A DNA stretch of 64,000 nt. Source: Minisyncoccota bacterium. GTDB lineage: Bacteria > Patescibacteriota > Minisyncoccia > Phycocordibacterales > UBA9973. The stretch lies in the NCBI GenBank assembly GCA_041666225.1, contig JBAYHJ010000004.1, positions 4,350 to 68,349 on the forward strand, read 5' to 3'. Shown here piece by piece: positions 7,114 to 49,593 of the stretch. Made by a program: the position numbers and the translations under genes. How positions within the stretch are numbered: the first letter of the stretch is position 1; each line of letters begins with the position of its first letter. The notes beneath the pieces were generated by a model. That model was not told the DNA's origin and searched no databases. It saw nothing but the letters and a program-made list of their open reading frames with translations.

Positions 7114-7127
7114 AAAACCAAATTTAT

Positions 7128-7157
7128 AAAGCCCCCCGACCTAGGTCGGGGGGCTTT
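7128..7157. terminator. perfect palindromic hairpin (aaagccccccgacc-taggtcggggggcttt) flanked by A/T tracts; likely a bidirectional intrinsic terminator
   Basis: A 14-bp GC-rich stem with flanking A and T runs. It lies downstream of the minus-strand mgtC-like gene and upstream of alaS. Confidence 0.5.
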
Positions 7158-7166
7158 ATAAATAAT

Positions 7167-7649
7167 TTAATTATTATCAATAGAAGGATTCTCTTTAAAA
7201 TATTTTGTCTTTTTAAGCTGCTCTTCAACAAACCACATTACTATAAAAATAAATAGAGTTAATATCGTAGCAATTATAGAAATATTATAAAGCCCAAAAC
7301 CAGCAGCCATTCCAATACCTGCTGAAACCCATAAACCGGTAGCTGTTGTAAGTCCCAGCATTTTTGATTCTTTTGAAAAAATAAGACCTGAACCAATAAA
7401 TCCAACACCAACAACAATTTGAGCAGTTATCATTAAAGGATTAAGCCCAGAAAATCCTGCATAGTATTTAACCATCTCATTTGAGATAATCACAAACAAA
7501 GCAGACCCCATAGAGACAAGTGCATAAGTACGCATACCCGCAGTCTTGTGTGCCCATACACGCTCAATACCTATAACCATTCCTAAAATCATCGCTACAA
7601 AAAGACGAATTATAATGTCGACTGTCACCGCATCAAAAATATTATTCAT
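7167..7649 (-). CDS. MgtC/SapB family membrane protein
   Basis: 160 aa containing ..GMVIGIERVWAHKTAGMRTYALVSMGSALF.., the MgtC signature, with four to five TM helices. Confidence 0.7.
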   Translation of the reverse strand: MNNIFDAVTVDIIIRLFVAMILGMVIGIERVWAHKTAGMRTYALVSMGSALFVIISNEMVKYYAGFSGLNPLMITAQIVVGVGFIGSGLIFSKESKMLGLTTATGLWVSAGIGMAAGFGLYNISIIATILTLFIFIVMWFVEEQLKKTKYFKENPSIDNN

Positions 7650-7784
7650 ATTACTATTGTATCAAATTATTTATAATTATTAAACTTTTTATAAAACCAG
7701 ATTTTTATTTTAAATTTAATGGTTTTCAATATAATTGGAATAAGATACTTAAATGACTCTAATTTTAATTTAAGTTTTTTCATA

Positions 7785-9566: not shown

Positions 9567-9807
9567 ATTTTTTTACAATTTCCTGCCCTGTAGGAAGAAA
9601 AATGTGCATTCGACGTTTTGATTTCCTTTGGGGTGGCAATTCCTTGTTTCTGAATTCATACATAAATTATATTCCAATTTGCCCATTTATTCAATATGTT
9701 TTAACATTATGTTTTCAAATTCTGTTTTTTTACGCATATGCATAAATTTATAGAATCTAGCTAGATTGTTATTCTTCTTCTTCAAAATATCTATTACTAG
9801 ATATTTA

Positions 9808-10893
9808 CTAATTTACAACACATCCACCTAGACAAATATCATTATCATAAATCACAATAGATTGTCCTTTATCTACAAGTATATTTTTCTCAAAAATTAC
9901 CTCTGTATAGGTCTGACTTATGCAAACTATTTTACAATCTAAATACTCTCCATGATAACGAATTTGGGCCTGATATTTCTTGTCTTTTTTAGGAATTTCA
10001 TTAATCCAGTTCGCATTACTACACATGATGGTCGTATTTAATTTACTTTCTTTTTCTAGCCCTAAGTCCGACTTAGGGCTGACTGTAATTGTATTATTCA
10101 TTGGATCTTTTGAAACAACATATAGTGGTTTATTATCATCTGTATTTTTAGTAATATTAAATCCATGTCTTTCTCCTAGTGTAAAAAATACTGCTCCATC
10201 ATGAGTACCAATAATTTCTCCATCTTCACTAAGAACATTCCCTTTTTCAGACTTTATATAATGTTTTAAAAAATCTTTCATATCAAGATGTCCCAAAAAA
10301 CAAACACCCTGACTGTCTTTCTTTGTGGCGGTTAGAAGTTTATATTTTACTGCTAGTTTTCTGACTTCTGTTTTTTTAAGATGACCAATTGGAAAAAGTA
10401 CATGAGCTAAATCATCTTGAGTTAGAGTCCATAAAAAGTAAACTTGGTCTTTGGAATTATCTTTCCCCTTTTTTAATTCGTAATTCTTAATTTTTAATTC
10501 GTAATTATTTTGAGCGTAGTGTCCCGTTGCAATAAAATCTGCTCCACGAGCTTTGGCAAAATTCCAAAATACTCCAAATTTAACTTCACGATTACACATA
10601 ACATCAGGGTTTGGAGTATTGCCCTTTTTATATTCTTCAATCATATAATCTGCCACTCCTTTTTTATATTCTTCGGTCGCGTCACATTCTAAAAATGGAA
10701 TTTCAAGATGCGCACAAACTCGCATGGCATCACGTCTTTCATCACGCCAAGTACACTCAATAAAATCTGGTGTCCATGTACGAATAAAAACTCCAACGAC
10801 ATTGTATCCTTGTTCAAGAAGTAGAGCAGTAGAAACAGACGAATCTACCCCTCCTGATACTCCAACAAATACTGTTTTTATTTCTTTTCCCAT
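9808..10893 (-). CDS. mnmA: tRNA-specific 2-thiouridylase MnmA
   Basis: PP-loop motif VGVSGGVDSSVS is present. The likely start is MGKEIKT at 10893; the ORF-track start at 10911 is upstream of that. Confidence 0.85.
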   Translation of the reverse strand: MGKEIKTVFVGVSGGVDSSVSTALLLEQGYNVVGVFIRTWTPDFIECTWRDERRDAMRVCAHLEIPFLECDATEEYKKGVADYMIEEYKKGNTPNPDVMCNREVKFGVFWNFAKARGADFIATGHYAQNNYELKIKNYELKKGKDNSKDQVYFLWTLTQDDLAHVLFPIGHLKKTEVRKLAVKYKLLTATKKDSQGVCFLGHLDMKDFLKHYIKSEKGNVLSEDGEIIGTHDGAVFFTLGERHGFNITKNTDDNKPLYVVSKDPMNNTITVSPKSDLGLEKESKLNTTIMCSNANWINEIPKKDKKYQAQIRYHGEYLDCKIVCISQTYTEVIFEKNILVDKGQSIVIYDNDICLGGCVVN

Positions 10894-11759
10894 CTTGCAA
10901 ATATTCCACAAGGAAGCAACCTATCATTGTCACCTTCTTTTATAGTTAACTCCCCGATTTCAATTTTACCCTTATATTCCTTCATTATATCTTTTAAATT
11001 ATTTTCATAAGCAATCGCAGAATATCCAGCGGTATAACCATTTGTAATTATAAATAATGGATCATCTGAAAGTATTTCACGGCAGAGTTTCATCAACAAA
11101 AGGAAATGTTCTTCTATTTTCCAAAGTTCATCTTTTGGTCCATGTCCAAATGATGGCGGATCCATAATTATAGCATCATATTTGCGACCTCTTTTTATTT
11201 CTCTTCTAAGAAATATTAAAACATCATCAACTATCCAGCGTATTGGTGCATCTTTCAATCCTGAAAGTTCAGCGTTCACACGAGCCCATTCAACAGCAGT
11301 TTTTGATCCATCAACATGACAAACTTCGGCTCCAGCTTTTGCACAGGCAAGTGTAGCTCCACCAGTATAACCAAATAAATTTAAAACACTTACTTTTTTT
11401 TCATTCGTAATTCGTAATTTGTAATTCGTAATTATCTCTTTTGTCCATTCCCAGTTCGGAAGTTGCTCAGGGAAAAGACCTGTGTGCTTAAAAGAAGTAG
11501 GCCGAATTGAAAAATGTAAACCACCAAATACTATATCCCAATTTTTTGGAGTCCCATCTTTGGCTATCCATTTTGTTTTATTTCCATTACGGACAAATTT
11601 TAGTTCTGCTTTATCCCACAAACTAAAATCTTTTGATTTTTCCCAAAGAGCTTCTGGATCTGGACGCCTCAAAATATAAGAACCATATCTTTCTAATTTT
11701 TCTCCATTACCTGAATCTATCAATTCATATTCTTTTTGTTTTATTGTTTTTAAAATCAT
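10878..11759 (-). CDS. class I SAM-dependent RNA methyltransferase, RlmI/RlmK-like
   Basis: 293 aa with ..LNLFGYTGGATLA.. (SAM-binding motif I) and ..DAIIMDPPSFG.. (motif IV, DPPxF). Confidence 0.65.
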   Translation of the reverse strand: MILKTIKQKEYELIDSGNGEKLERYGSYILRRPDPEALWEKSKDFSLWDKAELKFVRNGNKTKWIAKDGTPKNWDIVFGGLHFSIRPTSFKHTGLFPEQLPNWEWTKEIITNYKLRITNEKKVSVLNLFGYTGGATLACAKAGAEVCHVDGSKTAVEWARVNAELSGLKDAPIRWIVDDVLIFLRREIKRGRKYDAIIMDPPSFGHGPKDELWKIEEHFLLLMKLCREILSDDPLFIITNGYTAGYSAIAYENNLKDIMKEYKGKIEIGELTIKEGDNDRLLPCGIFARWEKK

Positions 11760-11820
11760 AATTGTTCCATCTTAGCTAAAAACGTAGCAAATTATTTTAT
11801 AAAAAAATGTCTGGCTCCTT

Positions 11821-11847
11821 GTCCTCCCTCATCCGAGGACTTTTTTT
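11821..11847 (+). terminator. plus-strand intrinsic terminator (gtcctc-cctcatcc-gaggac followed by T7) located between two minus-strand genes
   Basis: A 6-bp GC stem is followed immediately by TTTTTTT on the plus strand only. No annotated plus-strand gene lies upstream. Confidence 0.4.
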
Positions 11848-11876
11848 AGAATATAATTTGTGAAGTTTTTAATTAA

Positions 11877-12791
11877 TTATTTTAAATATTTACTTATATT
11901 ACTCTTATGTTCTTCAAATGTCGTAGCATAATGTACTTTACCATTTTTATCGTGAAGATAATAATAATACGCTGAATCTACTGAATTTATAGCTGCATTA
12001 ATAGACATTAACCCCGGATTATTTAATGGTTTTTGAGGTAATCCTTTATTTATATATGTATCCTTATCTATATCTACCTGAAGTGGCATTCCTGTAGAAA
12101 TTCTCTTCCACAAAATACCAGAAATAATAGCAATATCATCTTTACCACCCGCTTCTCCTTCTAAAATCGAAGCCATGATTATAACCTGAGACAAACTTCT
12201 TCCACTTTTTTTTATTGATTCATCAATTTTTTTAATTTTAACATCAAAATTATTTGATAATTTCTCAACTATTTCTGAAGTAGTATCAAGTGGATAGAAA
12301 AAATATGTATCTGGGAATAAATATCCCTGTTTGTTTTCTGTACTAATTAAAAATAAATCTTTTCGAAAGCCAGACAATTTATCAGCAAGTAGTGCAGCAA
12401 TAGCTTTATTTGTTAATCCTTCGCGAATTGTTATTTTAATCGGCTCAATATTATGATGACCCCTACCTATTTGCCAAGCAACAATCCAAACTGGTGAATT
12501 TTTATTTATTAAATAATCTCCAGATACAATACCTTTTTTTGTTCCAAATAATTTAATAAAAATTTTTAAAACGGAATTATTTCTTATTGCATTTTTATTT
12601 TCAAGGTCTAATGTCAAGGCATTGACGGATTGACCTTTCTCTATATGTATAATTAAATCTTTACTATCAAAAGGGGCTGAAAATAAATAATATCCTATCA
12701 ATAATAAAAAACCAATAACTAATAATATCCAATGTATTCTTAGTTGCTTTATCTTTTCTGGTTGCCAGTTTTTACTAATACTGTCATCCAT
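11877..12791 (-). CDS. mltG: endolytic murein transglycosylase MltG (YceG family)
   Basis: 304 aa with an N-terminal TM anchor. The C-terminus ..NPGLMSINAAINSVDSAYYYYLHDKNGKVHYATTFEEHKSNI.. matches the YceG/MltG signature. Confidence 0.75.
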   Translation of the reverse strand: MDDSISKNWQPEKIKQLRIHWILLVIGFLLLIGYYLFSAPFDSKDLIIHIEKGQSVNALTLDLENKNAIRNNSVLKIFIKLFGTKKGIVSGDYLINKNSPVWIVAWQIGRGHHNIEPIKITIREGLTNKAIAALLADKLSGFRKDLFLISTENKQGYLFPDTYFFYPLDTTSEIVEKLSNNFDVKIKKIDESIKKSGRSLSQVIIMASILEGEAGGKDDIAIISGILWKRISTGMPLQVDIDKDTYINKGLPQKPLNNPGLMSINAAINSVDSAYYYYLHDKNGKVHYATTFEEHKSNISKYLK

Positions 12792-12794
12792 ATA

Positions 12795-14126
12795 TTAAAT
12801 AGGTAAATTTGATGGTGGTTTTGCAATCTTTGATTCAATACGTTTGAAGCTTGGAGTCTCAGAAACCATACCAGGAAAATGATAAAGAGAAGCTAATTCT
12901 TCATTTGAAAGAACAAAGACATTCGGTTTACCTGAAGGAAAAAACATTGATAAAACAGCTGGATATTTAAAAGCGTACTGAATAGGTGGATGAAAGAAAG
13001 TTCTCATACGATAAAAATCAAGCATACGTTTTTTGATTGAAGTAAGAGCAAGCCCTGTCGGATCAGACCAAGGAGCATCGAACTGTGTAGCACTAACACG
13101 ATTTAATTCATTTGAATATGGCTGGGCAAATTGTCTCCATATCAAACGTGAATTACGTCTTAAATTATTAAATTGATCATCCGTACAAAGTCTTTTGTCT
13201 GATAAAGTAATAACTCTTATCCCAGCATCAAAATGAATTTGAGTAAGGGCAGTAATCATTTTTTTAACAAGATCATCAAGAAATGCAGGTGCTCTAATTT
13301 CCATAACAGAACCACCTTCACCCAAACCACCAGTTTTAGTAAATTTAGTAAAAGGTTTTAATATTTCTTTCATATGTTCTTCTGAGTGTTCTTGTATTCC
13401 CACATGTTTACCAGTATGACTATGATATTTTTTAATACTTTGTCTAATTACAATCTGAATCCATACTTGTTGACCTTTGGGTAATGAACCTAAAAATTCT
13501 ATAATAGGAGTAATGGGATCAATTTTAAATTCTTCTTTTGTTCCGGTCTTCATTTCATCAATTTGTTTATATGTTTTTATTGGCTGGGCATCATCTTTCA
13601 TTTTGGTGAATTCACAACCCCAAACATTCCAATCTCCATCTTTTTTATATTGGGGAATATTCCAAACATAATCTTCAACCTCAATAACTTTTGCTTGGGG
13701 GTATTGGGCATAAATCTGTGTCTCTACTAAATCACGTATTCTAGATGGCGTTCTAATATAAAAATGGACTCTGCCCTCAATTGATACCATCTCAAGTGAA
13801 AACCAAAGCCATGGAGCACCTATCATGAATTCTTCCCAAAAACCTTTTATACTTTTATGATACAAAGCGTTTGAAAAAATAAGTTCCATAGCAGCTGGAG
13901 TTTTTATAACATCCCTTGGAACATGAATTTCAAGTAAAACCCACTTTATACTCATAATAAAACGCTCTTGTCTATAATGGTGCCATAAATGAAAAGCAAC
14001 ATAAGCAAGTGGAATAGGCATCAAATAACCAATCGCCACAATCAGTAGTTGTATTAAATTAAAATTATGTGTTGAAAAAAAATCTTGTATCATAAAATAA
14101 TATGTTTTAACTTGTAAAATACCCAA
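12795..14126 (-). CDS. hypothetical membrane-anchored protein
   Basis: 443 aa. Two N-terminal TM segments are followed by a large soluble domain. No motif recognised. Confidence 0.5.
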   Translation of the reverse strand: MGILQVKTYYFMIQDFFSTHNFNLIQLLIVAIGYLMPIPLAYVAFHLWHHYRQERFIMSIKWVLLEIHVPRDVIKTPAAMELIFSNALYHKSIKGFWEEFMIGAPWLWFSLEMVSIEGRVHFYIRTPSRIRDLVETQIYAQYPQAKVIEVEDYVWNIPQYKKDGDWNVWGCEFTKMKDDAQPIKTYKQIDEMKTGTKEEFKIDPITPIIEFLGSLPKGQQVWIQIVIRQSIKKYHSHTGKHVGIQEHSEEHMKEILKPFTKFTKTGGLGEGGSVMEIRAPAFLDDLVKKMITALTQIHFDAGIRVITLSDKRLCTDDQFNNLRRNSRLIWRQFAQPYSNELNRVSATQFDAPWSDPTGLALTSIKKRMLDFYRMRTFFHPPIQYAFKYPAVLSMFFPSGKPNVFVLSNEELASLYHFPGMVSETPSFKRIESKIAKPPSNLPI

Positions 14127-14220
14127 TCAATATTGCGATAAAAATTACACCCGCAATTATTATTAAAGTATTAACAATAAAACCTCTTTGCATATTAATT
14201 ATTATATCATACTTAAAATA

Positions 14221-14256
14221 AAAAACCTCTCCGACCTAGGTCGGAGAGGTTTTTTA
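14221..14256. terminator. perfect palindromic hairpin (cctctccgacc-taggtcggagagg) with an A5 tract before and a T6 tract after; bidirectional intrinsic terminator
   Basis: It lies downstream of the minus-strand 14263..15294 gene. It shares the ccgacctaggtcgg core with the hairpin at 7128. Confidence 0.6.
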
Positions 14257-14262
14257 TTGACT

Positions 14263-15294
14263 TTAAGCTATAATATACTGTCCCCCTTTATTCTTTTTAA
14301 AATATTTTGAATTTTGTAGATTTACTAAAATTGTATTTTTCTTTAAATATCTCTCTTTCATTACTTGCTCTACAATTTCATCTTTGGTCATAGGACCATT
14401 TTTCTTGATAAGTTCTTTTATGACATCACGAACTACTCCAGTTTTATATCCCCATTCAGAAAGTGCATAAATACCTCTTCCTACTAATACAAACCTTGGA
14501 TCTTTGATTAATTCATTATGACAAGTTGCTATGTGACATTTTTTGTCGAAAGTACTAGCTACTGCTTTTGCTACTTCTCTAAAATGCATTGGGCTACCAT
14601 GTTTACGCATCATTAAAAAAGCAAAATCTTTCACTCCACGAGTTTTAATAGAAGAAGAAGTAGATTTACCCCATTCTCCCAATGGATTCTTACTAATCTT
14701 TTTTGACATTGAAAGCCATCGGCGAGCTATTTCTTCATTCTTGTATTGTTCAGACAAATCTTTCACCTCATCAAGAAAACGAGCTATAAGTTCCCCTTCA
14801 GAAATTAGTTCATCATCGGAAAGACTTTCGAATATATTTTTTAAAGATTTATGAATAGATTCCGCTATATCAGAATCAACACTCCAACGTGTCTTAAAAT
14901 GTTCGTCTTCTTTGTGTTTAGTAAATTCATTACCTAGAGTTAAATATAGGTGCATGTGATTCTGAGTTAATTTATCTTTAGATAAATTATTGAGTAAATC
15001 TTGTTCAGAGACGATTGCCCCTAATGTATGTACTAATTTTTTTAATTCTTCAAAAACTTCTTTTTCGTTCTTAAAAAATTCTGATTTACGAATAAGTGAT
15101 AATGCTGTATTTTCGATTTGACGAACACGCTCACGAGTAATGCCGTATTTTTGACCTATCGCCTCCAGTGTCTTACGTTGAGTATCGGAAGTCAATCCGA
15201 AACGATTAACTATCACCTCGTAAGCACGTGGTGGTAACCCTGAAAGCATTCTTTTGGTAACTTGTTTTGGTTTAAATGTAACTGTATTAGCCAT
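14263..15294 (-). CDS. sigma-70 region-4-like HTH plus C-terminal HARE-HTH domain protein
   Basis: The N-terminus ..TLEAIGQKYGITRERVRQIENTAL.. is a sigma region 4 HTH. The C-terminus ..MHFREVAKAV...DPRFVLVGRGIYALSEWGY matches the HARE-HTH (RpoE N-terminal-type) consensus. Confidence 0.55.
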   Translation of the reverse strand: MANTVTFKPKQVTKRMLSGLPPRAYEVIVNRFGLTSDTQRKTLEAIGQKYGITRERVRQIENTALSLIRKSEFFKNEKEVFEELKKLVHTLGAIVSEQDLLNNLSKDKLTQNHMHLYLTLGNEFTKHKEDEHFKTRWSVDSDIAESIHKSLKNIFESLSDDELISEGELIARFLDEVKDLSEQYKNEEIARRWLSMSKKISKNPLGEWGKSTSSSIKTRGVKDFAFLMMRKHGSPMHFREVAKAVASTFDKKCHIATCHNELIKDPRFVLVGRGIYALSEWGYKTGVVRDVIKELIKKNGPMTKDEIVEQVMKERYLKKNTILVNLQNSKYFKKNKGGQYIIA

Positions 15295-15400
15295 TTTTAA
15301 TTTGTTTTAATCTAATTAATTTCTTGTCTCTATGTATAATATCATTGTAATCATATAAAGTCAACTATTTAATTATATGTTGACAAATAAGGCCAATATA

Positions 15401-17209
15401 TTACTTTTTAGCGGCTACTTTTAATTTTGATCTGTTCATTTCTGTCAATAATTTCTTTCTGAGACGAACACTTTTGGGAGTAATTTCAAGATATTCATCT
15501 TCAGCCATGATCTCTAAACCTCTTTCAATTGATAATTTATAAGGTGGTTTTACATTGATTGCTTCATCAGTTCCACTCGAGCGCATATTTGAAAGTTGTT
15601 TACTTTTTGTTGGGTTGACGGTCATCTCGTCTCCTTTTGTAACATTTCCAATAACCATACCTTCATAAACTTCATCACCATGTTCAACATAAAGTATTCC
15701 TCTTTCTTGAAGTGTCCAAAGTGAAAATGCAATAACTTTACCTCCAACCATTGAAGTCATAGAACCAACATCACGTTTTTTAATTTCACCAGCATAATCT
15801 TTAAATCCAATAAATCGAGATGCGAGTATTCCCTCACCTTTTGTATCAACGACAAATTGTCCACGGTATCCAAGTAATCCCCTTGTGGGTATTTCAATCA
15901 ACATTCGAACTATTCCTTCTTTTTCATGCATACTTGTGATGATTCCGCGACGTCCAGTTAATTTTTCAATTACAGCACCTGAGAATTCATTTCGTACATC
16001 AATAGTAGCCTCTTCATATGGTTCTAATTTTACACCATTTTCTTCTTTTATAATTACATGAGGCTGAGAAACTTGAAGTTCATATCCTTCACGACGCATG
16101 TTTTCAAGTAGTACAGCAATATGTAATTCACCTCTTCCGTATACTAGAAATCCTTCTTGAACTTCTTCTTCATCTGGTGAATCAAAATTTATTCGAAGTC
16201 CTACGTTCATCTCGAGTTCTTTCTCTAATCTCTCTCTTATTTGACGACTTGTGACATACTTACCTTCACGTCCACAAAAAGGAGAATCATTCACAAGAAA
16301 ATTTAAAGAGATTGTTGGCTCGTCTATATCAATAGAAGGAAGAGCTTCTGTTTTTATATCATCACAAAAAGTTTCTCCAATATAAACATCTGGAATTCCT
16401 GCAATAATAGCGATATCCCCCGTATTTAGAACAGTTACTTCTTTTCTATTTATTCCTTCAAAAGTAAACATCTTGGAAATTTTTGCTGTGCGAGAATTCC
16501 CAAAAGCATCTTTCACCACCAATGGAGTATTTGTTTTAATAGAACCAGCATATGCACGAACAATAGCTAAACGCCCTAGGAAGTTATCATAACCAAGATT
16601 AAAAACTTGAGCTCTAAATGGGTCCTCTTTATTTATAGAAGCCTCTTTTACTTCAGAAAGAATAAGATCAAACAAAGGTGTTAGGTCTTTTGATTCATCT
16701 TCTAAATGAAGTTTTGCTACCCCCTGTCTACTAATAGCATAAAGGTATTTAAAATCAATTTGATCTTGAGTTGCTCCAAGTTCTAAAAATAATTCAAGAA
16801 TTTCATCATGAACACGATCAGGGTTAGCAGCTGGTTTATCTATTTTATTTATTACAACTATAGGTTTAAGACCAAGTTCAAGTGATTTTTTCAAAACGAA
16901 ACGAGTTTGAGGCATTGGACCTTCTTGTGCATCAACAAGTAAAAGTACAGAATCAATAGCACGAAGGACACGCTCTACTTCAGAGCCAAAATCCGCGTGA
17001 CCTGGTGTATCAACAATATTTATTTTAGTTCCTTTATAAATAACCGAAGTATTTTTAGAATATATAGTAATACCACGCTCAAGTTCAAGAGCGTTTGAAT
17101 CCATGGTTACTCCAACTTCTGCCATTCCACATTGCTTCATCATCTGATCTGTCAGAGTAGTTTTACCGTGGTCAACGTGGGCGATTATAGCTATATTTCT
17201 TATTTCCAT
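15401..17209 (-). CDS. typA: translational GTPase TypA/BipA
   Basis: The 602-aa protein begins ..IRNIAIIAHVDHGKTTLTDQMM... This matches the BipA N-terminus rather than LepA, whose equivalent motif is NFSIIAHIDHGKSTL. Confidence 0.8.
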   Translation of the reverse strand: MEIRNIAIIAHVDHGKTTLTDQMMKQCGMAEVGVTMDSNALELERGITIYSKNTSVIYKGTKINIVDTPGHADFGSEVERVLRAIDSVLLLVDAQEGPMPQTRFVLKKSLELGLKPIVVINKIDKPAANPDRVHDEILELFLELGATQDQIDFKYLYAISRQGVAKLHLEDESKDLTPLFDLILSEVKEASINKEDPFRAQVFNLGYDNFLGRLAIVRAYAGSIKTNTPLVVKDAFGNSRTAKISKMFTFEGINRKEVTVLNTGDIAIIAGIPDVYIGETFCDDIKTEALPSIDIDEPTISLNFLVNDSPFCGREGKYVTSRQIRERLEKELEMNVGLRINFDSPDEEEVQEGFLVYGRGELHIAVLLENMRREGYELQVSQPHVIIKEENGVKLEPYEEATIDVRNEFSGAVIEKLTGRRGIITSMHEKEGIVRMLIEIPTRGLLGYRGQFVVDTKGEGILASRFIGFKDYAGEIKKRDVGSMTSMVGGKVIAFSLWTLQERGILYVEHGDEVYEGMVIGNVTKGDEMTVNPTKSKQLSNMRSSGTDEAINVKPPYKLSIERGLEIMAEDEYLEITPKSVRLRKKLLTEMNRSKLKVAAKK

Positions 17210-35505: not shown

Positions 35506-35563
35506 GGGTCACAAATGCTAAAAAAGCCTTATTTTATAAGGCTTTTTTAGCATTTGTGACCCT
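35506..35563. repeat. 58-nt perfect palindrome whose right arm is the tRNA-Glu 3' end; it doubles as the tRNA terminator hairpin
   Basis: gggtcacaaatgctaaaaaagcctta-tttta-taaggcttttttagcatttgtgaccc. Confidence 0.6.
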
Positions 35564-35628
35564 ACCGGGAATCGAACCCGGATTACCGGCTTGAAAAGCC
35601 GATGTCCTAACCGTTAGACGATAAGGCC
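35557..35628 (-). tRNA. tRNA-Glu (anticodon TTC); CCA not encoded
   Basis: The sequence GGCCTTA-TC-GTC..TTAGGAC-A-TCGGC-TTTTCAA-GCCGG-TAAT-CCGGG-TTCGATT-CCCGG-TAGGGTC-A aligns to canonical tRNA-Glu. The acceptor stem has two G-U pairs. Confidence 0.75.
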
Positions 35629-35997: not shown

Positions 35998-37086
35998 ATG
36001 AAAACACTATTAATTTTGAGTCTTAGTACTGGAATGGTATGGGGATTAACAATTGGAATAATTATTTCAATCCTGGTATTGTTTTTGTTGTTAATATATT
36101 ATGTATTAGCACCAAACAATATTTTCTTTACTTTTGGTAGAGAAAATCGTGTTATGTATACAATGCGAGGAAAGGAATTCTCTGGAAAGGTAATACTTCC
36201 GTCAAAAACTCTTTATGTTAATACGGAGGATAATTACGCAATCAAAAAAATTGCAGACCTCACAAATCCAAAAGAATCCGATAAGTATAAACCTTTTGGT
36301 ATACTTGGAATGCATTGGGTTGGAATTTATCCATTCTATAAGATTTATGAACGTCGCCAGCAATGGCTTGAATGGAAATCACTAGAAGGAGGAAAGAGAA
36401 AGATAATACTTCGAGATGAAATGTCTCCATTTTTAATCGCTAAACCATTCGAATACGCAATGATGACGGATGAAGCTGAAGATGAACATGGGATGCCATT
36501 AAATGTATTTTTCACTGTAACTCTTGTGCCAACAAATGCCCTATCTCCTATGTTTGGAAATGATAATGCTTACGGACAAGTGCAAACAAAATGCATATCC
36601 CAGGTTTTGCTTTTCACAAAGAAAAAAACCTTTTCAACCTTAGGGGGAGATAACAAAACTTCCAACGTTACAAATGATGAGTTTTCGGTACTGTTGCGTA
36701 GTCTTAATGAAACAATTCCTGGTAATAATATTGGGGATGGAATTAAGAAAATTCTCGGTTATGAAATTATAGATGCTATGTTAAATAATGTCGTAATCGG
36801 TGGTGAAAATGCAAAAGAACTTCTTGATGCTTCAACTTTGGAATATATTGCTATTGAAAAAAAGAAAGCAAAAATAGCTGATGCCGAGGGTGATTTACAG
36901 GCAACATTATTAAATGTTCAAGGACAAGAAGCTAAGTTTAAAATTCAAACGGATTTTTATAAAAACTTATCTAATGTTCCAGGAGCTATGGATGTTGAAA
37001 AAAGGAAAGCTACGCCAGGCCTTACTACTTTAGTAGAAGGTGATGGGGATAAAAAAACAAGCTTAATTATAGGAGGAAACAAATAG
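35998..37086 (+). CDS. SPFH/Band-7 (stomatin/flotillin-like) domain membrane protein
   Basis: 362 aa with an N-terminal TM helix. The C-terminal segment ..AIEKKKAKIADAEGDLQATLLNVQGQEAKFKIQ.. resembles the SPFH coiled-coil. Confidence 0.45.
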   Translation: MKTLLILSLSTGMVWGLTIGIIISILVLFLLLIYYVLAPNNIFFTFGRENRVMYTMRGKEFSGKVILPSKTLYVNTEDNYAIKKIADLTNPKESDKYKPFGILGMHWVGIYPFYKIYERRQQWLEWKSLEGGKRKIILRDEMSPFLIAKPFEYAMMTDEAEDEHGMPLNVFFTVTLVPTNALSPMFGNDNAYGQVQTKCISQVLLFTKKKTFSTLGGDNKTSNVTNDEFSVLLRSLNETIPGNNIGDGIKKILGYEIIDAMLNNVVIGGENAKELLDASTLEYIAIEKKKAKIADAEGDLQATLLNVQGQEAKFKIQTDFYKNLSNVPGAMDVEKRKATPGLTTLVEGDGDKKTSLIIGGNK

Positions 37087-37724
37087 TGGGGAATTTTTTA
37101 ATTGGATTATCGATACCAATAGGTATTTTAATTCTGTTGATTCTGGTGATATTTTTGATAATCAAATTTTCCCAAAGAAAATCAACTTCTAAACTTCAAA
37201 AAGATCAAGGATCATCTACTCAAAGTGAACCAGCCAGTGGGAACACAAATCCCCCGTCAGCTGATCATGGTCATGATACTCCTAAAAAGAAGTCAAAATT
37301 TTGGAGTAGCCTAGGTGCAATTGCTGGTGTTATAGCTCTCATTGTTTTTGTACTTTGGGCTGTCAGTTTTGGGATAAAGACAGTAAAATACCTTAGTGAC
37401 TTTTTTACCCTTGAAGAAAATAAAGTTCATCCAAAAAGCCTTCCTGAAAAATCACTTCCTGATTCAATAATAACACTCAAAGATACAATCATTGAGTATT
37501 ATCATTTGAGTAAAGGTTCACAAAAAGTGATTTATACTCGACCGGGTTACAATTATATCCGGCACAGTGGGGGCTGGAAATATTATTGTAAGACACAAAA
37601 TGAACCTTATTTCACCATCCACGGAGGCAATCCACCCATAGCTGATGATGTTGGAATAAAATATTTTTATGTTAAATTCTACGAAGTAGAATGTGACATA
37701 AAAATAATATTTGTAAAAATATAA
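37086..37724 (+). CDS. membrane protein with a beta-rich C-terminal domain; candidate NfeD-like partner of the SPFH protein
   Basis: 212 aa with two TM helices and a C-terminal beta-rich region. It is translationally coupled to the upstream gene (ATG overlaps the stop). Confidence 0.35.
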   Translation: MGNFLIGLSIPIGILILLILVIFLIIKFSQRKSTSKLQKDQGSSTQSEPASGNTNPPSADHGHDTPKKKSKFWSSLGAIAGVIALIVFVLWAVSFGIKTVKYLSDFFTLEENKVHPKSLPEKSLPDSIITLKDTIIEYYHLSKGSQKVIYTRPGYNYIRHSGGWKYYCKTQNEPYFTIHGGNPPIADDVGIKYFYVKFYEVECDIKIIFVKI

Positions 37725-37749
37725 TTTGTACATTTTAAAAAACAAAAAA

Positions 37750-37777
37750 ACGTCCTCAAAAAGGACGTTTTTCTTTT
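37750..37777. terminator. bidirectional terminator hairpin (acgtcct-caaaaa-ggacgt with flanking A7/T-runs) between convergent genes
   Basis: Perfect 7-bp stem with flanking A and T tracts. Confidence 0.55.
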
Positions 37778-37795: not shown

Positions 37796-38122
37796 TTATT
37801 GTGTCATATTTCCAACATTGTAGTTCCCTGTATCGTTTACATTAATTTTTTCTTCTCCAACGGTATTCAGGATCAAACTCATGATGCCAAAGACTGAAAT
37901 CATTATAAACATTCCTATTACTCCCCAAAGCATATGGTCCTTACTGGTCTTTCGTATCTCTTCATTATCAGGTGATAATAAATACTTTAGAAGTCCATAG
38001 AGAAAATAAACCACCGCAAGCGCAAACAATAATACAATGAGAGGGTTTATAATAACCCTATCTATACTTTTCATTAAAGTAGTGATACTTGCTTCAGCTA
38101 TTGGTATAATCTGGAACATCAT
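37796..38122 (-). CDS. VirB2/TrbC-like pilin-fold small membrane protein, paralog 1
   Basis: The pattern is TM helix, then YF/W-G..KY..SPDNEEIRKTSKD, then a second TM helix ending ..FG. This pattern is shared with four neighbouring genes. Confidence 0.4.
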   Translation of the reverse strand: MMFQIIPIAEASITTLMKSIDRVIINPLIVLLFALAVVYFLYGLLKYLLSPDNEEIRKTSKDHMLWGVIGMFIMISVFGIMSLILNTVGEEKINVNDTGNYNVGNMTQ

Positions 38123-38131
38123 AAATAATTA

Positions 38132-38533
38132 TTAACAAGTAATACCTGCATTTGGGTTAGGAATACAAGGAATATCCCTTGGATCTAATTGTTCAGGTCC
38201 AACTCCAAATGTACTTGTAATAAGTGATAAAATACCCCAGAAAGCAACTATGATAAACAAGCCGATAAGACCTTGGATGATTTTACCACGAGCACCCTTC
38301 TTTGCTTCTTCATCTGTTGAAACAGTATATTGAATAACTCCCCAAATAAAGTAAACAACAGCAAGAGTTATAAGTACTGGAATAACATAAGCCAATAATT
38401 GAGCAATATCTCTAAAAATAGTAAAAGCATTTACATCATCTGCTGCTAAAACCAACATAGGAGAAACAACTCCCAAAACTGCCCCAACCGAAATAATTTT
38501 TTTCATATAATTTATTTTTAATAATAAAAACAA
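38132..38533 (-). CDS. VirB2/TrbC-like pilin-fold protein with signal peptide, paralog 2
   Basis: A signal peptide (MKKIISVGAVLGVVSPMLVLA|ADD) is followed by ..AVVYFIWGVIQYTVSTDEEAKKGARGKIIQGLIGLFIIVAFWGILSLITSTFG. The start is likely the MKKI Met at about 38506. Confidence 0.45.
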   Translation of the reverse strand: MFLLLKINYMKKIISVGAVLGVVSPMLVLAADDVNAFTIFRDIAQLLAYVIPVLITLAVVYFIWGVIQYTVSTDEEAKKGARGKIIQGLIGLFIIVAFWGILSLITSTFGVGPEQLDPRDIPCIPNPNAGITC

Positions 38534-38614
38534 TTCTTATAATATCGTCTTTTTTACCGACCAAAGTGAAAAAGACACTTACCTTTACAAACCTTATTAT
38601 ATCATACAATAATC

Positions 38615-39046
38615 TTATTGTGGAAGCTGTGGAATTGTATTTGTAAGGCCAAATGTTCCAGTAAGAATAGCTACCAATCCCCACATTGAAAGCATTACAA
38701 ATAAAGCGATCAATCCACCAATAATAAAACTCTTGCCCTTCTTTCTTTTCTCTTCATTGTCAGGATTCAAATAAAACTGAATAACTCCCCAGATAAATGC
38801 AGCAGTCGCAAGTGCAAATAAAAATGGCACTACTGTTTTAAGTAAAAAACAACTCGCCCAGTTCACAACACCTGTGATATCTTTCAAACTATTACCAGCA
38901 CAAACACTTTGTGTGGTAGTTGTAGTTGGAGCTGCATTTGCAACACTTGGCACTATCCCCATGGAAGTTATCATCAGCACTCCTACGATAATAAAACTAC
39001 TAAATAAAACTAATTTTTTCATACGTTTTTTCTTAATATTAAACAT
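38615..39046 (-). CDS. VirB2/TrbC-like pilin-fold protein with signal peptide, paralog 3
   Basis: A signal peptide is followed by a Thr-rich linker and ..AAFIWGVIQFYLNPDNEEKRKKGKSFIIGGLIALFVMLSMWGLVAILTGTFG. Confidence 0.45.
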   Translation of the reverse strand: MFNIKKKRMKKLVLFSSFIIVGVLMITSMGIVPSVANAAPTTTTTQSVCAGNSLKDITGVVNWASCFLLKTVVPFLFALATAAFIWGVIQFYLNPDNEEKRKKGKSFIIGGLIALFVMLSMWGLVAILTGTFGLTNTIPQLPQ

Positions 39047-39052
39047 AATATT

Positions 39053-39514
39053 TTATGTTGTACTTGTAATATCGACCACTGTCTTCTGAATCGCTTCAGC
39101 AATAACAAACGCTCCCAATAACAACGCTGCCCCTATCAAGGTATACACAAGGGCCTTTTTTGCCTTCGTCAGCTTTTCGGAATTGCCTGAAGCCGAAACA
39201 AAAAGGAAACCAGTGTAAATGATAGCGAGAGCAACAATAGGAATACCAACAACAAGAACGATATTTATGAGAGCTTTTATAAAAGAAGGAATATCTTGAA
39301 TATTATCACCTAGGGGGTTGTGAATAGCAGTGTTGATGTTTGTGCCAGGAGTAGAACCAGTATCACCAGCATCAACACAAGGTTGTTCACCGGCTCCACC
39401 ACAAGCATTCACAAATAAAACCGGAGTAACCAACATAAAGGCAAATACAATCACAAAACTATATTTTAAAATACTCGAGAGTAAACTATATTTTTTCTTT
39501 TTTAGAATTTTCAT
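39053..39514 (-). CDS. pilin-fold paralog 4 (more divergent)
   Basis: It shares the N-terminus MK.LK.KKYS.LS..LKYSFV with the 456-aa neighbour. The C-terminus has a hydrophobic helix, then SGNSEKLTKAKKAL, then a second hydrophobic helix. Confidence 0.35.
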   Translation of the reverse strand: MKILKKKKYSLLSSILKYSFVIVFAFMLVTPVLFVNACGGAGEQPCVDAGDTGSTPGTNINTAIHNPLGDNIQDIPSFIKALINIVLVVGIPIVALAIIYTGFLFVSASGNSEKLTKAKKALVYTLIGAALLLGAFVIAEAIQKTVVDITSTT

Positions 39515-39535
39515 ATTTTATAAAATTAATAATAA

Positions 39536-40906
39536 TTAAAGTATCAAAAAAGCATCTTTTGGATCAAAACCAAGTGTTGCCAATAATGTCTTTACAATGA
39601 GCCATGCAGCCAAAGCAATCAAGTATCCAATGATAACATTTTTGAAAATCTTTTTTGCTTTGTTAATATTTTCTGAGCTCCCCATATCACTTAAATATAA
39701 CCATCCGACATATACAAGGATGAGGGCAAAAAGAGGTGTAGCCATAGTAATAAGTAAAAAGTTTATAACTCTATTAACTCCGGCCAATAATACATTGAAG
39801 TTACAAGGATTTTTAAATCCTCCACTTGTAGTATCCACTTCCGTATTACATATTGGAACTAAGCCTTTAAATTTTATATCACCAGTTGTTGGTGTTATAA
39901 TATTTCCTCCTCCTGATGTAGGTGTACAAGTAGGATAATCAGTCGCTCCATTTAAACAAGTACCCGAAATTGTAGTAACAGTAAATATGCTTGGGTTTAG
40001 ATTACTCGTATCTCCAGAATATGTATTTGCGGATGTTTTTATGGTGATTTTTCCACTTGTCGCTCCCTCTGGAACTTTGACGGTAATCTTATTGGCAGTA
40101 TTGGTAGTCGTAACAGTATTTGTCGTATTAAAAAGTACACTGCTTACATTGTTGAAATTGCTACCATCAATTGTGATAACATCACCTACTTTTCCAGAAG
40201 TTGGAGTGAAACTTGTTATCTTTGGACTCATGATAGGCATACTATTTTCAATAAGAACCGAAATAGTATAATTTTTTGTCGAGCCATTTCCAGCTGTAAC
40301 GACGTAGGTAACATTGTTGGTGAAGTTTTTTGCAACACCAGAGGCTGGATTTACTGTGGCTTCACTAGATACGCTAATCGTAGGAACTAAGGCTGTGATG
40401 TTGGTTCCATAAGGTACAGTTAAGATAACTGAATTTGCCCCGATAAAACCAGTTACAACAGGATTAAAATTTAAAAAATCAAAAGAAATAATATCTTTGG
40501 CAGATGAAGTTGAAGCAGGGGTTAAAAAAGTCGTAGTCCCTACAGAGCCACTTGTTCCTGTATACATAACTCCCGCTCTATATTCACCTGATGGGCTTAA
40601 TCCAGTAAAAGTAGAACTGGCTGTGCCGAGGTTACTACTCAATACAGAAAAAGATTGATCATAATTGGGAGTATTACCTACCTCAATTACTCGAATGATC
40701 ACAGTAGCATCAGGAGTAAGACCTTCTGCTGATATGTGTGCTGTCGTTGGAGTAATATTTGAACTCGTCATCGTTACTGCGGCTAAGGATAGTTTAGGAT
40801 ATACAAAAAAACTTGAAAAAATCATAACTCCAGTAAGAACACCAACAAAACTATATTTCAAAAAATTTGATAAGATACTATATTTTTTTGTTTTTAAAAA
40901 TTTCAT
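39536..40906 (-). CDS. large Ser/Thr-rich surface protein with an IPT/TIG-like domain fused to a C-terminal VirB2/TrbC-like pilin module; candidate pilus adhesin
   Basis: 456 aa. A signal/TM N-terminus is followed by Ig-like repeats (..SPKITSFTPTSGKVGDVITIDGSNF..). The C-terminus ..YVGWLYLSDMGSSENINKAKKIFKNVIIGYLIALAAWLIVKTLLATLG matches the paralog motif. Confidence 0.4.
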   Translation of the reverse strand: MKFLKTKKYSILSNFLKYSFVGVLTGVMIFSSFFVYPKLSLAAVTMTSSNITPTTAHISAEGLTPDATVIIRVIEVGNTPNYDQSFSVLSSNLGTASSTFTGLSPSGEYRAGVMYTGTSGSVGTTTFLTPASTSSAKDIISFDFLNFNPVVTGFIGANSVILTVPYGTNITALVPTISVSSEATVNPASGVAKNFTNNVTYVVTAGNGSTKNYTISVLIENSMPIMSPKITSFTPTSGKVGDVITIDGSNFNNVSSVLFNTTNTVTTTNTANKITVKVPEGATSGKITIKTSANTYSGDTSNLNPSIFTVTTISGTCLNGATDYPTCTPTSGGGNIITPTTGDIKFKGLVPICNTEVDTTSGGFKNPCNFNVLLAGVNRVINFLLITMATPLFALILVYVGWLYLSDMGSSENINKAKKIFKNVIIGYLIALAAWLIVKTLLATLGFDPKDAFLIL

Positions 40907-40912
40907 ATTTGT

Positions 40913-42217
40913 CTATTTTTTAATTAAAACCTCAAGTTGACTTTGGGCCTTATTGACAGCTTCATATACTGATAACCTATTTGATAATATATTTTCGACT
41001 AATTCACTAAAAATAGTATCCGTCTTTATTTTGTCTGGATCAGGCCAAGATCTTGAAATAAGAGCTGAATTAAAAAATGTAAATAAGTAAGGATCATTGG
41101 GTTTATCGGCAAGTAGTGCACGTGAAGCAGGAGGCAGTGAAACTGATGTTGCGAAATTTTTAGCATTGTCTCCTAGGCTTAAATTACTTGCAATATTTAA
41201 AGCGGTAGAAATATTGGCGGATTTTTTATTGATAGCAATAGCATATATCTCTCCATATGTACGCTTGATAGTAGTATTTTTTATTTGTGGAATTTGAGTC
41301 ACATCAAAACTTAAATTAGGATTTAAAGATTCTATATTAAATAATTCACTTGCTCTACCTATATAAAAAGCAAGTTTTCCACCAGTAAACATATCCAAAG
41401 AACTAGGAAGAGATCTGTTCCAAGAATAAGCAGTATTTGAAGGATTAGAAAATTCCATAAAGAATTTAAAAACAGTAGCCACCGGAGAAACAGTCAATCC
41501 CAATGGATTAGAATTTAATACTGATAAATAAACTAAATCTGTCCCCTTTTTTACTATAGGATTGTTGTTCTGAATAAGTAATGTCGCAAGTATATCTTTG
41601 GCATTATTTAGATTTTCATATTGACCGAGAGCAATCATACTCTGAGTGATAGTGCCATTATTTTCTTTCTTGGTTAAAGTTGAATTGAGAGTAAATAATT
41701 CATCCCAACTGGCAGGTGGAGAAACAATCGCTTCATTTGATAAAATATCTTTATTATAATACAAAACCATAGGGTCTACGACAAGAGGAAAACCTAAAAC
41801 CCCTTCACTGTCAGTATAAATATCGGCTCCATCTACAAACGAATCTATAAAAGTTTTTTGTTTGTAATCTGTATAAGGAATTTTATATAAAAAATTTATA
41901 TCTTTTTGAATCTGATCTGAAGTTATGATGAATAAATCAGGGCCCACTCCATTTGCAAAAGCCTCGATAAGATTTTGTTGATAAGTAGCAGGATCTTTAC
42001 TTACATAACTTAAACTCAAATCTCTATTGGCTGATCTAATATTATCAAGAATTTTTGACATCGAAGAACTAGGAAAAGTTCCCCAAATTACAACCTTACC
42101 TTGAAGGCCATTGTCTACTGTCGATCCTGGAATTTTAATTAGTCCAGAAAATATCAAAACACCAAAAACAAAGAAAGAGAGAAAGATTGCAATTAAAATT
42201 GTCTGAAAATTACTCAT
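40913..42217 (-). CDS. membrane-anchored extracellular solute-binding protein (SBP family 1-like); no permease or ATPase partner in the window
   Basis: 434 aa with an N-terminal TM anchor, then a domain with ..GFPLVVDPMVLYYNKDI.. and ..WDELFTL.. typical of MalE-like SBPs. Confidence 0.45.
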   Translation of the reverse strand: MSNFQTILIAIFLSFFVFGVLIFSGLIKIPGSTVDNGLQGKVVIWGTFPSSSMSKILDNIRSANRDLSLSYVSKDPATYQQNLIEAFANGVGPDLFIITSDQIQKDINFLYKIPYTDYKQKTFIDSFVDGADIYTDSEGVLGFPLVVDPMVLYYNKDILSNEAIVSPPASWDELFTLNSTLTKKENNGTITQSMIALGQYENLNNAKDILATLLIQNNNPIVKKGTDLVYLSVLNSNPLGLTVSPVATVFKFFMEFSNPSNTAYSWNRSLPSSLDMFTGGKLAFYIGRASELFNIESLNPNLSFDVTQIPQIKNTTIKRTYGEIYAIAINKKSANISTALNIASNLSLGDNAKNFATSVSLPPASRALLADKPNDPYLFTFFNSALISRSWPDPDKIKTDTIFSELVENILSNRLSVYEAVNKAQSQLEVLIKK

Positions 42218-48978: not shown

Positions 48979-49593
48979 ATGGAAAACAATAATAATCAAA
49001 TTATCAATGAAGTTAATAAATCAAAATTTAAAAAGGGGCTCGAAAGTTTTTGGGATCTTATAAAGTTTGCGGCGATAGCACTTGTTATCGTTATCCCAAT
49101 CCGAATGTTTATTGCTCAACCATTTATTGTAAGCGGAGAATCAATGTTCCCTACTTTTCATGACGGTGAATATTTGATAGTAGATGAATTATCCTACATA
49201 ATAGGAAATCCTAATCGAGGTGATGTTATAATTTTCCGTTATCCAGGTGATACTAAAAGATTTTTTATTAAAAGAATTATTGGTATGCCAAACGAAGAAA
49301 TACTAATCAATAATGGTGAAGTAACCATAAAAAACAAAGAAAACCCAGAGGGTTTTACTCTCGATGAACCATATATCGATGAAAAATTTAATTCAAATTA
49401 TTCTTATAAAACAATAGATAGTGAATACTTTGTAATGGGAGACAATCGAAATAGAAGTTCTGATTCTCGTACTTGGGCAGAATCATCACCAATTAAATTA
49501 ACTAATAAATTAATAATCGGTAGAGCCTATCTTCGTCTTTTACCCTTTAAAGAAATTTCATATTTACCAGGTTATTTTAAAGAATCAAAATAA
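48979..49593 (+). CDS. lepB: signal peptidase I
   Basis: ..VSGESMFPTF.. (catalytic Ser), ..GDVIIFRYPGD.., ..KRIIGMPNEEI.. and ..MGDNRNRSSDSR.. (catalytic Lys region/box E). Confidence 0.85.
   Translation: MENNNNQIINEVNKSKFKKGLESFWDLIKFAAIALVIVIPIRMFIAQPFIVSGESMFPTFHDGEYLIVDELSYIIGNPNRGDVIIFRYPGDTKRFFIKRIIGMPNEEILINNGEVTIKNKENPEGFTLDEPYIDEKFNSNYSYKTIDSEYFVMGDNRNRSSDSRTWAESSPIKLTNKLIIGRAYLRLLPFKEISYLPGYFKESK

Follow-up and report, generated by a model that had tools for sequence, protein, structure and literature searches.

A Conserved Five-Gene Array of VirB2-Like Proteins with a Variable, Adhesin-Like Member in a Minisyncoccota Genome

Introduction

What are five adjacent genes for pilin-like proteins doing in a bacterial genome when no secretion or pilus ATPase is encoded beside them? 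The question is raised by contig JBAYHJ010000004.1 (assembly GCA_041666225.1) of a Minisyncoccota bacterium, of which a stretch of 64,000 nt was analysed (the window). The genes lie on the minus strand at nt 37796-40906, and an earlier note on this DNA had taken them for a cluster of VirB2/TrbC-type pilins, the largest fused to an adhesin, that could represent an orphan and uncharacterised attachment apparatus. The array is a member of a class that is already known, the VirB2-like arrays of Patescibacteria, and on balance it is probably a satellite operon of VirB2/PrgF-like, pilin-type subunits, which would serve the chromosomal type IV secretion system (T4SS) of a Paceibacteria host in forming a fibre or stalk.

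Patescibacteria make up a large share of uncultured bacteria, and the means by which they recognise and attach to their hosts are largely unknown. VirB2-like pilin arrays of this group were published between 2023 and 2025 (PMC10633639, PMC12102498, PMC12857230), and in the one system tested, that of Southlakia, epibiotic growth requires the pilin series of the T4SS cluster (Wang et al. 2023, PMC10633639), yet the published work reports no T4SS-linked adhesin. A pilin-type protein that gains or loses immunoglobulin (Ig)-like outer domains between species, as the first member of the present array does, is a concrete candidate for a determinant of host specificity. In the searchable literature, no description was found of a satellite operon with five fixed slots, of the link between such an operon and a binding protein, of a swappable outer domain or of an intergenic RNA hairpin.

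Five Genes with a Shared T4SS_pilin Module

The five open reading frames (ORFs) were confirmed in a row, in tandem with gaps of 6-108 nt, and are named p1 to p5 in the order of transcription (Table 1). Their C-terminal 70-90 residues align as a hydrophobic helix, an aromatic-Gly step, a charged loop with one invariant Glu and a second hydrophobic helix, the paralogs sharing 21-34% identity. Two hydrophobic segments are predicted in each protein, and the loops of p3-p5 carry 4-5 Lys/Arg and 3-4 Asp/Glu. All five exceed the curated gathering cut-off of Pfam family PF18895 (T4SS_pilin; 26.6 bits, whole-protein score), p4 with the best score of the array and p2 narrowly, and the consecutive minus-strand genes with a common two-helix module that the earlier note had recognised are thus confirmed by ORFs, alignment and profile. 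A hidden Markov model (HMM) of the module, built with these five included, matched nothing else in the window, even at E <= 10. The window itself is an AT-rich (about 32% GC) stretch of housekeeping genes.

Further profiles point to conjugation proteins. NCBIfam NF045849 (the Mbov_0395 family, a 'pilin-like conjugal transfer protein' of a Mycoplasma integrative and conjugative element) gave 36.7, 34.3, 24.0, 28.2 and 9.4 bits, with E-values of 2e-5 to 2.5e-9 for four of the proteins, and its cut-off of 40 bits was reached by none; p2 also matched DUF6112 in the Pfam scan (23.8 bits). An hhalign comparison of 20 Paceibacteria modules with five Firmicutes proteins annotated as 'TrbC/VirB2 family' returned a probability of 80% (E 1.4e-5, 43 columns). 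In Table S3 of the survey by Quinonero-Coronel et al. (2025, PMC12102498), an ortholog of p2 (KKP61341.1) is listed as T_virB2, and orthologs of p3 (KKP61342.1) and p4 (KKP61343.1, at 92.75% coverage) are listed as FATA_PrgF; these are published assignments of orthologs only, for which the CONJScan FATA_prgF criterion was i-E < 0.001 and coverage > 50%. The profiles support the prediction of a VirB2-type pilin module, at the level of PF18895 and PrgF-type families. With five PF18895 genes in tandem, the array is also a 'VirB2 array' of Patescibacteria in the sense of PMC12102498, for which 2-11 pilin genes must stand in tandem or with a single non-pilin gene between them.

The earlier note had assigned cleavable signal peptides to two of the paralogs. 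Hydrophobic N-terminal leaders were found in four (p1-p4), and p5 alone has none. The leaders of p2 and p1 are of a common type, MK(I/F)(L/F)K.KKYS.LS..LKYSFV. A reading of p2 as a lipoprotein (VNAC) was dropped because the Cys varies among its orthologs.

Synteny and Orthology in Related Genomes

Relatives were scanned with the p1 module, using one genome per species, which gave 30 loci. The comparison of synteny that had been proposed as a check found the order GyrA, methyltransferase, binding protein, p1, p2, p3, p4, p5 in 25 of these 30, and in three long related contigs the order is longer still (HisRS, signal peptidase I, Pth, S1, MBL-fold protein, a small ORF, GyrA, methyltransferase, binding protein, p1-p5). 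Chance is excluded because the same five genes recur in the same order in 25 other genomes. In an all-against-all comparison, proteins in the same position scored 94-198 bits with each other against 0-82 bits for paralogs; for p3 the corresponding ranges are 100-116 and 0-70 bits, and p5 is the most conserved of the five (ortholog scores 133-158 bits). The array falls into two subfamilies, (p1, p2) and (p3, p4, p5). The five genes are, therefore, paralogs of ancient origin, for each of which a separate ortholog occupies the matching position in the relatives. That the copies are old and individually conserved speaks for distinct roles and against a stock of variable spares.

Eleven of the related loci (L013-L017, L025, L027, L028, L030, L031 and L036) come from TPA_asm metagenome-assembled genomes (MAGs) titled 'uncultured Candidatus Saccharibacteria bacterium'. 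They show synteny of the Paceibacteria type and their modules are up to 80% identical to those of the window, and the titles are probably a default or mistaken taxonomy.

The p1 Protein and Its Outer Domains

The exact p1 protein stands on the NCBI record as WCT42_01960, 'hypothetical protein'. An AlphaFold2 (AF2) model based on 46 homologs (mean pLDDT 69.9) divides it into a leader helix, three outer segments, a Cys-bearing neck and the two-helix module (Table 1). Over residues 227-309 the protein matches NCBIfam CoaZ_rpt_PGGG (33.3 bits, above the cut-off of 30), the Pfam TIG_SUH match is weak (14.4 bits), and homologs of p1 carry PF01833. The outer part thus contains an Ig-like beta-sandwich that matches TIG models and structures, and the fusion of an Ig/IPT-like region to the module, as earlier described, is upheld by the AF2 model and by Foldseek, with FN3-like, DUF5018-like and IPT/TIG parts now distinguished.

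Such a fusion had been regarded as unusual for a pilin, but it is common in this family. About 70 homolog clusters combine TIG, FN3 or LysM with PF18895, nearly all of them unnamed or from Paceibacteria-type MAGs. Among the 25 syntenic species the p1 slot is long in 10 (260-445 aa), with TIG, FN3, LysM or DUF5018 depending on the species, and short in 15 (ORFs of 124-173 aa), the three closest relatives of the window among them. We infer that p1 is a swappable adhesin, the outer domain of which is exchanged, gained or lost between species.

The Module in Other Lineages

The PF18895-type family comprises 20,666 representatives at E <= 0.001, and architectures were taken from the best 150. In about 90 of these a chain holds 2-16 modules, and in roughly 42 a single module is joined to a long extension. 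Tandem-module chains include P0121, P0127, P0148, P0149, P0151 and P0154, with six modules in 555 aa for P0148 and sixteen in 1,775 aa for P0154; they look like genuine fusions rather than read-through and recall the fused ring subunits of rotary ATPases.

The extensions may stand on either side of the module. In L028 (12023-13846) and L030 (11752-13587) the p5 slot encodes proteins of 607 and 611 aa, in which a C-terminal triple repeat of 500 aa comes after the p5 module; its three Cys-containing units are of ~130 aa each, and they are accompanied by a conserved C-terminal domain without a Pfam match. L041 (Uhrbacteria) has two adjacent giant surface proteins of 691 aa (6535-8610) and at least 2,821 aa (8642-17104) with an N-terminal PF18895 module followed by Big_5, TIG and Big_7 domains. 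In L038 (9509-10948) and L039 (5057-6718) the module is central in proteins of 479 and 553 aa, between an Ig-like N-terminal part and a further C-terminal part, which by eye is lytic transglycosylase-like (GLYQIN) in L038 and Cys-His amidase-like in L039, neither being confirmed by Pfam. L040 (Peribacteria, 6645-8812) has five tandem module ORFs near a PilX_N-domain protein and a large thrombospondin-repeat protein, a possible link of VirB2-like arrays to type IV pilus components.

A Cys pair precedes the module in each of p1-p3, whereas that of p4 lies in the C-terminal tail, and in the relatives outer domains are fused N-terminally, C-terminally or on both sides. Together, these positions fit a predicted topology with both termini outside, as in VirB2-type pilins.

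Operon Context and Neighbouring Genes

Directly upstream of p1 is a gene for a solute-binding protein, which is distantly MalE-like (matches to MalE and sugar-binding proteins in PDB and NCBIfam) and has one N-terminal hydrophobic segment. Its end is 6 nt from p1, and on the other side its first 8 nt are shared with the end of the methyltransferase gene. None of the 25 syntenic loci lacks it directly upstream of p1, the gap being 1-20 nt where the gene is intact; by locus, the position is documented in L008-L010 and L013-L037. The binding protein is a probable operon partner of p1-p5, and the five genes are probably co-transcribed behind gyrA, the methyltransferase gene and that of the membrane-anchored binding protein.

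The gap between p3 and p4 is the sole long gap within the array, and most relatives have a comparable one there (about 90-200 nt). It holds a promoter-like site, of which an extended -10-like motif, TGnTAnAnT, is found at the same spot in 27 of 28 sequences (the window and 27 related loci). It is followed by a hairpin with an invariant GTCG in its apical loop, the stems of which vary by lineage with complementarity kept. The evidence for the hairpin comes from per-sequence folds (minimum free energy z-score below -2 in 16 of 23); no match was found in Rfam, and RNAalifold returned no structure from a crude intergenic alignment. Motif and hairpin recur in the p3-p4 gaps of L009, L010 and L013-L037. 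As judged from the DNA, they may represent a promoter within the array, together with a 5' leader, that serves p4-p5.

Table 1. Features of the array and its surroundings in the window (nt, positions of the window; aa, residues of p1).
Feature	Position	Strand	Description
tRNA-Glu	35556-35628		
Intrinsic-terminator-like hairpin	37744-37774	-	14 pairs, then T run; closes the operon; shared with convergent plus-strand gene
p5	37796-38122	-	108 aa; no signal peptide; conserved N-tail IIPxAEASxxTLMK; module; PF18895 29.3 bits
p4	38132-38506	-	124 aa from MKKI; classical signal peptide VLA|ADD; module; C-terminal tail with conserved Cys pair; PF18895 37.3 bits
Hairpin, p3-p4 gap	38547-38576	-	~40 nt after -10 motif; apical loop with invariant GTCG (GGTCG at 38558-38562)
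Promoter-like site, p3-p4 gap	38596-38624	-	TCCACA, 17 nt, TATAAT, TG upstream; TGATATAAT at 38604-38596; consensus scan
p3	38615-39046	-	143 aa; signal peptide ending ANA; Cys pair; module with loop NPDNEEKRKKGK; PF18895 29.9 bits
p2	39053-39514	-	153 aa; leader ~38 aa; short outer segment with Cys pair; module; PF18895 27.1 bits
p1	39536-40906	-	456 aa; leader, FN3-like, DUF5018-like, IPT/TIG, Cys-bearing neck, PF18895 module
p1 two-helix module	aa 370-444; nt 39575-39799	-	AF2 H370-406 and H411-444; PF18895 28.9 bits
p1 neck	aa ~345-369	-	Cys-bearing
p1 IPT/TIG domain	aa 229-291; nt 40034-40222	-	AF2 pLDDT >90; Foldseek EBF1 IPT/TIG 3mqi_C, TM 0.74
p1 DUF5018-like stretch	aa 130-223; nt 40238-40519	-	Poorly modelled; DUF5018 38.0 bits, just under cut-off 38.2
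p1 FN3-like beta-sandwich	aa 45-128; nt 40523-40774	-	Mean pLDDT about 90 over most; Foldseek FN3 matches
p1 leader	aa 1-~42	-	AF2: leader helix
Solute-binding protein, carbohydrate type	40913-42217	-	434 aa; SBP_bac_8 66.5 bits, SBP_bac_1 59.3 bits
Signal peptidase I gene	48979-49593		

Downstream of p5 the DNA varies by species and often carries serine recombinase, helicase or methylase genes (L008, L009, L014 and others). The region resembles an integration hot spot, and in the window the tRNA-Glu gene, the presence of which agrees with the earlier note, is 2.2 kb downstream of the array. Between them is a plus-strand pair (35998-37086 and 37086-37724), and in L013, L016, L023, L026 and L031 a homolog of at least one of the two genes likewise stands convergent to the array. 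The pair had been called an SPFH operon, a label for which neither Pfam nor NCBIfam gives support. Elsewhere in the window, four minus-strand ORFs of 453, 395, 593 and 443 aa (2693-4054, 4056-5243, 7785-9566 and 12795-14126) have no Pfam match at E <= 0.01, the last having a weak precomputed DUF8128 match alone.

Where the Secretion Machine May Be Encoded

Several results weigh against a T4SS-related function. No VirB4, VirD4, VirB6, PilB or PilT was found among the genes of the window or in the 10 kb beyond its high-coordinate end, which bears out the reported absence of secretion and pilus ATPases over this range; the array is instead surrounded by ribosomal, tRNA-synthetase, cell-division and similar genes. 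Among the matches listed for the 30 related loci, no T4SS or pilus ATPase is within 10 kb of the array, a result that for the flanks of L013-L042 derives from a Pfam scan of the 34 remaining ORFs of at least 400 aa, with the best 25 of 61 families by frequency, so that a singleton could be hidden. ORFs of ~900 aa with a Walker A motif beside p1-like genes in L038 and L039 were considered as VirB4 candidates and proved to be ClpB. As to the family itself, the TrbC/VirB2 model of Pfam (PF04956) matched p2 alone, at 18.0 bits (E 0.0035) and below its cut-off of 27.9, and no solved pilin was found by sequence with a profile of the five paralogs; that search returned designed helical proteins and rhodopsins alone, dismissed as composition matches. 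The AF2 model of the p5 monomer is a plain two-helix hairpin (H8-49 and H54-89), for which Foldseek found no match below E 0.5, a fold too simple to discriminate: complex I and chemoreceptor helices share the list with an archaeal conjugation pilus, 8dfu, in sixth place (E 1.5), and ATP synthase subunit c and ND4L are also alike. Fusions of 2,821 aa and chains of 2-16 modules are hard to square with a simple helical pilus, and no T4SS pilus has been seen in any patescibacterium, a 2025 review still terming such a pilus a possibility. For the VirB2/TrbC assignment made in the earlier note, support comes from the PF18895 scores of all five proteins, the hhalign link and the published T_virB2 and FATA_PrgF listings of orthologs, and PF04956 and the fold comparison do not add to it. 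Because the hairpin is unspecific in Foldseek, the pilin assignment rests on sequence profiles, not on fold.

The earlier reading of the array as an orphan is nevertheless not supported, because VirB2-like arrays are a published class in Patescibacteria and relatives with the array encode VirB4 elsewhere. RAAC4_OD1_1, a single scaffold of 693,530 bp, has the same array, with p1 as gene 287 (ETB63836.1). According to the tables of PMC12102498, its genes 531-537, ~245 genes from the array, include VirB6, VirB3, TrsD, VirB4 and a further PF18895 gene; ETB63836.1 is listed there as FATA_PrgF and as not near VirB4, and the other four array genes are unlisted. Similarly, Nomurabacteria GW2011_GWE2_34_25 has the array and a VirB4 gene, and in the Nomurabacteria pair with KKP61341.1 to KKP61343.1 the distance to VirB4 is about 240 genes (PMC12102498). 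A T4SS core encoded elsewhere is the best available answer to the question of which machine handles these proteins; as VirB4, VirB6 and VirD4 were not found near the array here or in the 30 loci, for the genome of the window this answer is drawn from its relatives.

Proposed Function and Alternatives

Under the satellite-operon reading, Sec or YidC would insert p1-p5 into the membrane, and the leaders of p1-p4 would be cut off by signal peptidase I. Both termini would face outward, with the loop in the cytoplasm, and the membrane pool would be handled by the VirB4/VirB6/VirB3/TrsD machine encoded elsewhere, which would assemble a short fibre or a stalk that spans the wall. The p3-p5 proteins would be the structural subunits, p4 and p5 perhaps with their own promoter, and p1 would be a minor or tip subunit with its N-terminal FN3, DUF5018-like and IPT/TIG domains directed outward, where they would bind the host-cell surface. 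The outer domain varies between species, being exchanged, gained or lost, and so may set partner specificity.

A different account, possible though rather unlikely, is that the hairpin is a membrane anchor, which never leaves the cytoplasmic membrane, where it may form a hetero-oligomeric ring or raft, and which displays adhesins or enzymes on a cell with no other apparent means of anchoring them. A fibre would not be formed and a T4SS would not be needed, which suits the finding that virB4 is never within 10 kb of the array in the 30 loci. The module stands N-terminally, centrally or C-terminally in proteins of up to 2,821 aa with Ig-like domains, and among the best 150 representatives the single modules with extensions and the multi-module chains, such as P0148, are more like fused ring subunits than pilins. 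The hairpin model also resembles ATP synthase subunit c and ND4L. Yet p5, p3 and p4, with tails of 10-35 residues, would display almost nothing and are the most conserved members, and the profile links lead to the T4SS pilin and PrgF families. Moreover, PF18895 genes adjoin virB4 in many other Patescibacteria (PMC12102498, Table S3) and are essential within the Southlakia T4SS cluster. It is improbable that the five hairpin proteins instead form the membrane component of a device for the capture or uptake of nutrients, acting together with the co-transcribed binding protein. That protein is transmembrane-anchored and encoded directly upstream of p1 in 25 of 25 syntenic genomes, no ABC permease or ATPase gene was found in the annotated parts of the 84-kb contig, and reviews have raised, as speculation, an uptake of host molecules by the patescibacterial T4SS; but SBP_bac_1/SBP_bac_8 proteins normally serve ABC importers, which may be encoded elsewhere, VirB2-like hairpins build no known transporter, and adjacency alone is no proof of interaction. 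That p1-p5 are holin-like or bacteriocin-immunity proteins, an unrelated identity that the earlier note had named as grounds for rejecting its own, or that they are type IV pilus pilins, is very improbable. Matches to holins were found for p4 alone (Phage_holin_4_1, E 0.025; TIGR01593, E 0.036) and are far under the cut-offs, whereas PF18895 is passed by all five; the array itself lies outside any phage or bacteriocin locus, its core-genome position beside gyrA being kept in 25 species, and the type IV prepilin motif G|F(T/S)LxE is absent from all five N-termini.

A broader and more speculative reading, which we consider doubtful, is that the PF18895 hairpin serves Patescibacteria in general as a carrier, by which outer domains such as adhesins, and possibly enzymes that degrade the wall, are loaded onto a T4SS-derived surface organelle. 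In the present Paceibacteria lineage this organelle would consist of five fixed subunits. Slot 1 would be a hot-swappable cassette for host recognition, the membrane-anchored sugar-binding protein would work at the base, and the promoter and GTCG hairpin would determine how much adhesin is made relative to the structural subunits. If this were true, the locus would encode both the partner specificity and the nutrient capture of an epibiont.

Comparison with Known Systems

The nearest counterparts are other arrays of Patescibacteria, the chromosomal T4SS of which derives from monoderm conjugation systems. The survey of Quinonero-Coronel et al. covered 3,035 genomes with PF18895 and PF04956 and found VirB4 in 2,417 assemblies. 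Of these, 1,948 also had VirB2-like genes, but a pilin gene lay close to virB4 in just 1,135; 441 arrays of 2-11 genes were counted, and adhesins were reported as not detected (PMC12102498). These arrays, like SEML1_0006-0019 of Southlakia epibionticum and the 'Sec-secreted array' of TM7x, resemble the present one in their tandem, divergent PF18895 paralogs (mean identity 25% in the survey against 21-34% here), in the monoderm host, in that no relaxase is involved and in a presumed role in host contact. The present array differs as a satellite far from virB4 (~245 genes in RAAC4_OD1_1), with five orthologous slots kept across species, a fixed linkage to gyrA, the methyltransferase and the binding protein, and a variable outer domain at slot 1. 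In the relatives checked, the survey flagged one to three of the five array genes, one in the case of RAAC4_OD1_1, and published surveys therefore under-count such arrays.

The build predicted here is that of the Gram-negative pilins VirB2, TrbC and TraA (PF04956 and relatives), in which a leader peptide is followed by a pair of hydrophobic helices with a short basic loop, and both termini are predicted outside in either group. Sub-threshold TrbC matches are given by p2 and by the L038 relative (20.5 bits), so the curated cut-off is unreached, and no solved relatives are found by sequence. Classical pilins of this type have no large outer domain, unlike p1, and adhesion in classical T4SS is, as far as is known, carried out by separate proteins such as VirB5.

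The closest link outside the Patescibacteria is to the TrbC/VirB2 proteins of Firmicutes conjugative plasmids (pHT-beta, pLS20-like) and PrgF of the MPF-FATA type, also from monoderm hosts; matches to the PrgF profile are listed for orthologs of p1, p3 and p4 (PMC12102498 table). A tblastn search of plasmids with p2 gave weak module matches (E 0.02-7) in Firmicutes conjugative plasmids and a Haloarcula plasmid, on genes annotated as TrbC/VirB2 family with few pilin or hypothetical; the matches in Gram-negative plasmids were all to merA through the leader region and were rejected as spurious. In contrast to the array, the Firmicutes gene is single-copy and lies inside a T4SS operon beside VirB11-like, VirD4-like and pLS20_p028-family genes, and the adhesin of these systems is a separate, isopeptide-forming fimbrial protein rather than a fusion as in p1.

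The Trw T4SS of Bartonella, with multiple TrwL/VirB2 and TrwJ/VirB5 copies, likewise has amplified pilin genes and is thought to serve host-cell adhesion, not transfer. Its copies are sequence-variable duplicates, for which a role in antigenic or host-range variation has been proposed, whereas the paralogs described here are old and individually conserved, and the variation is located in the fused outer domain.

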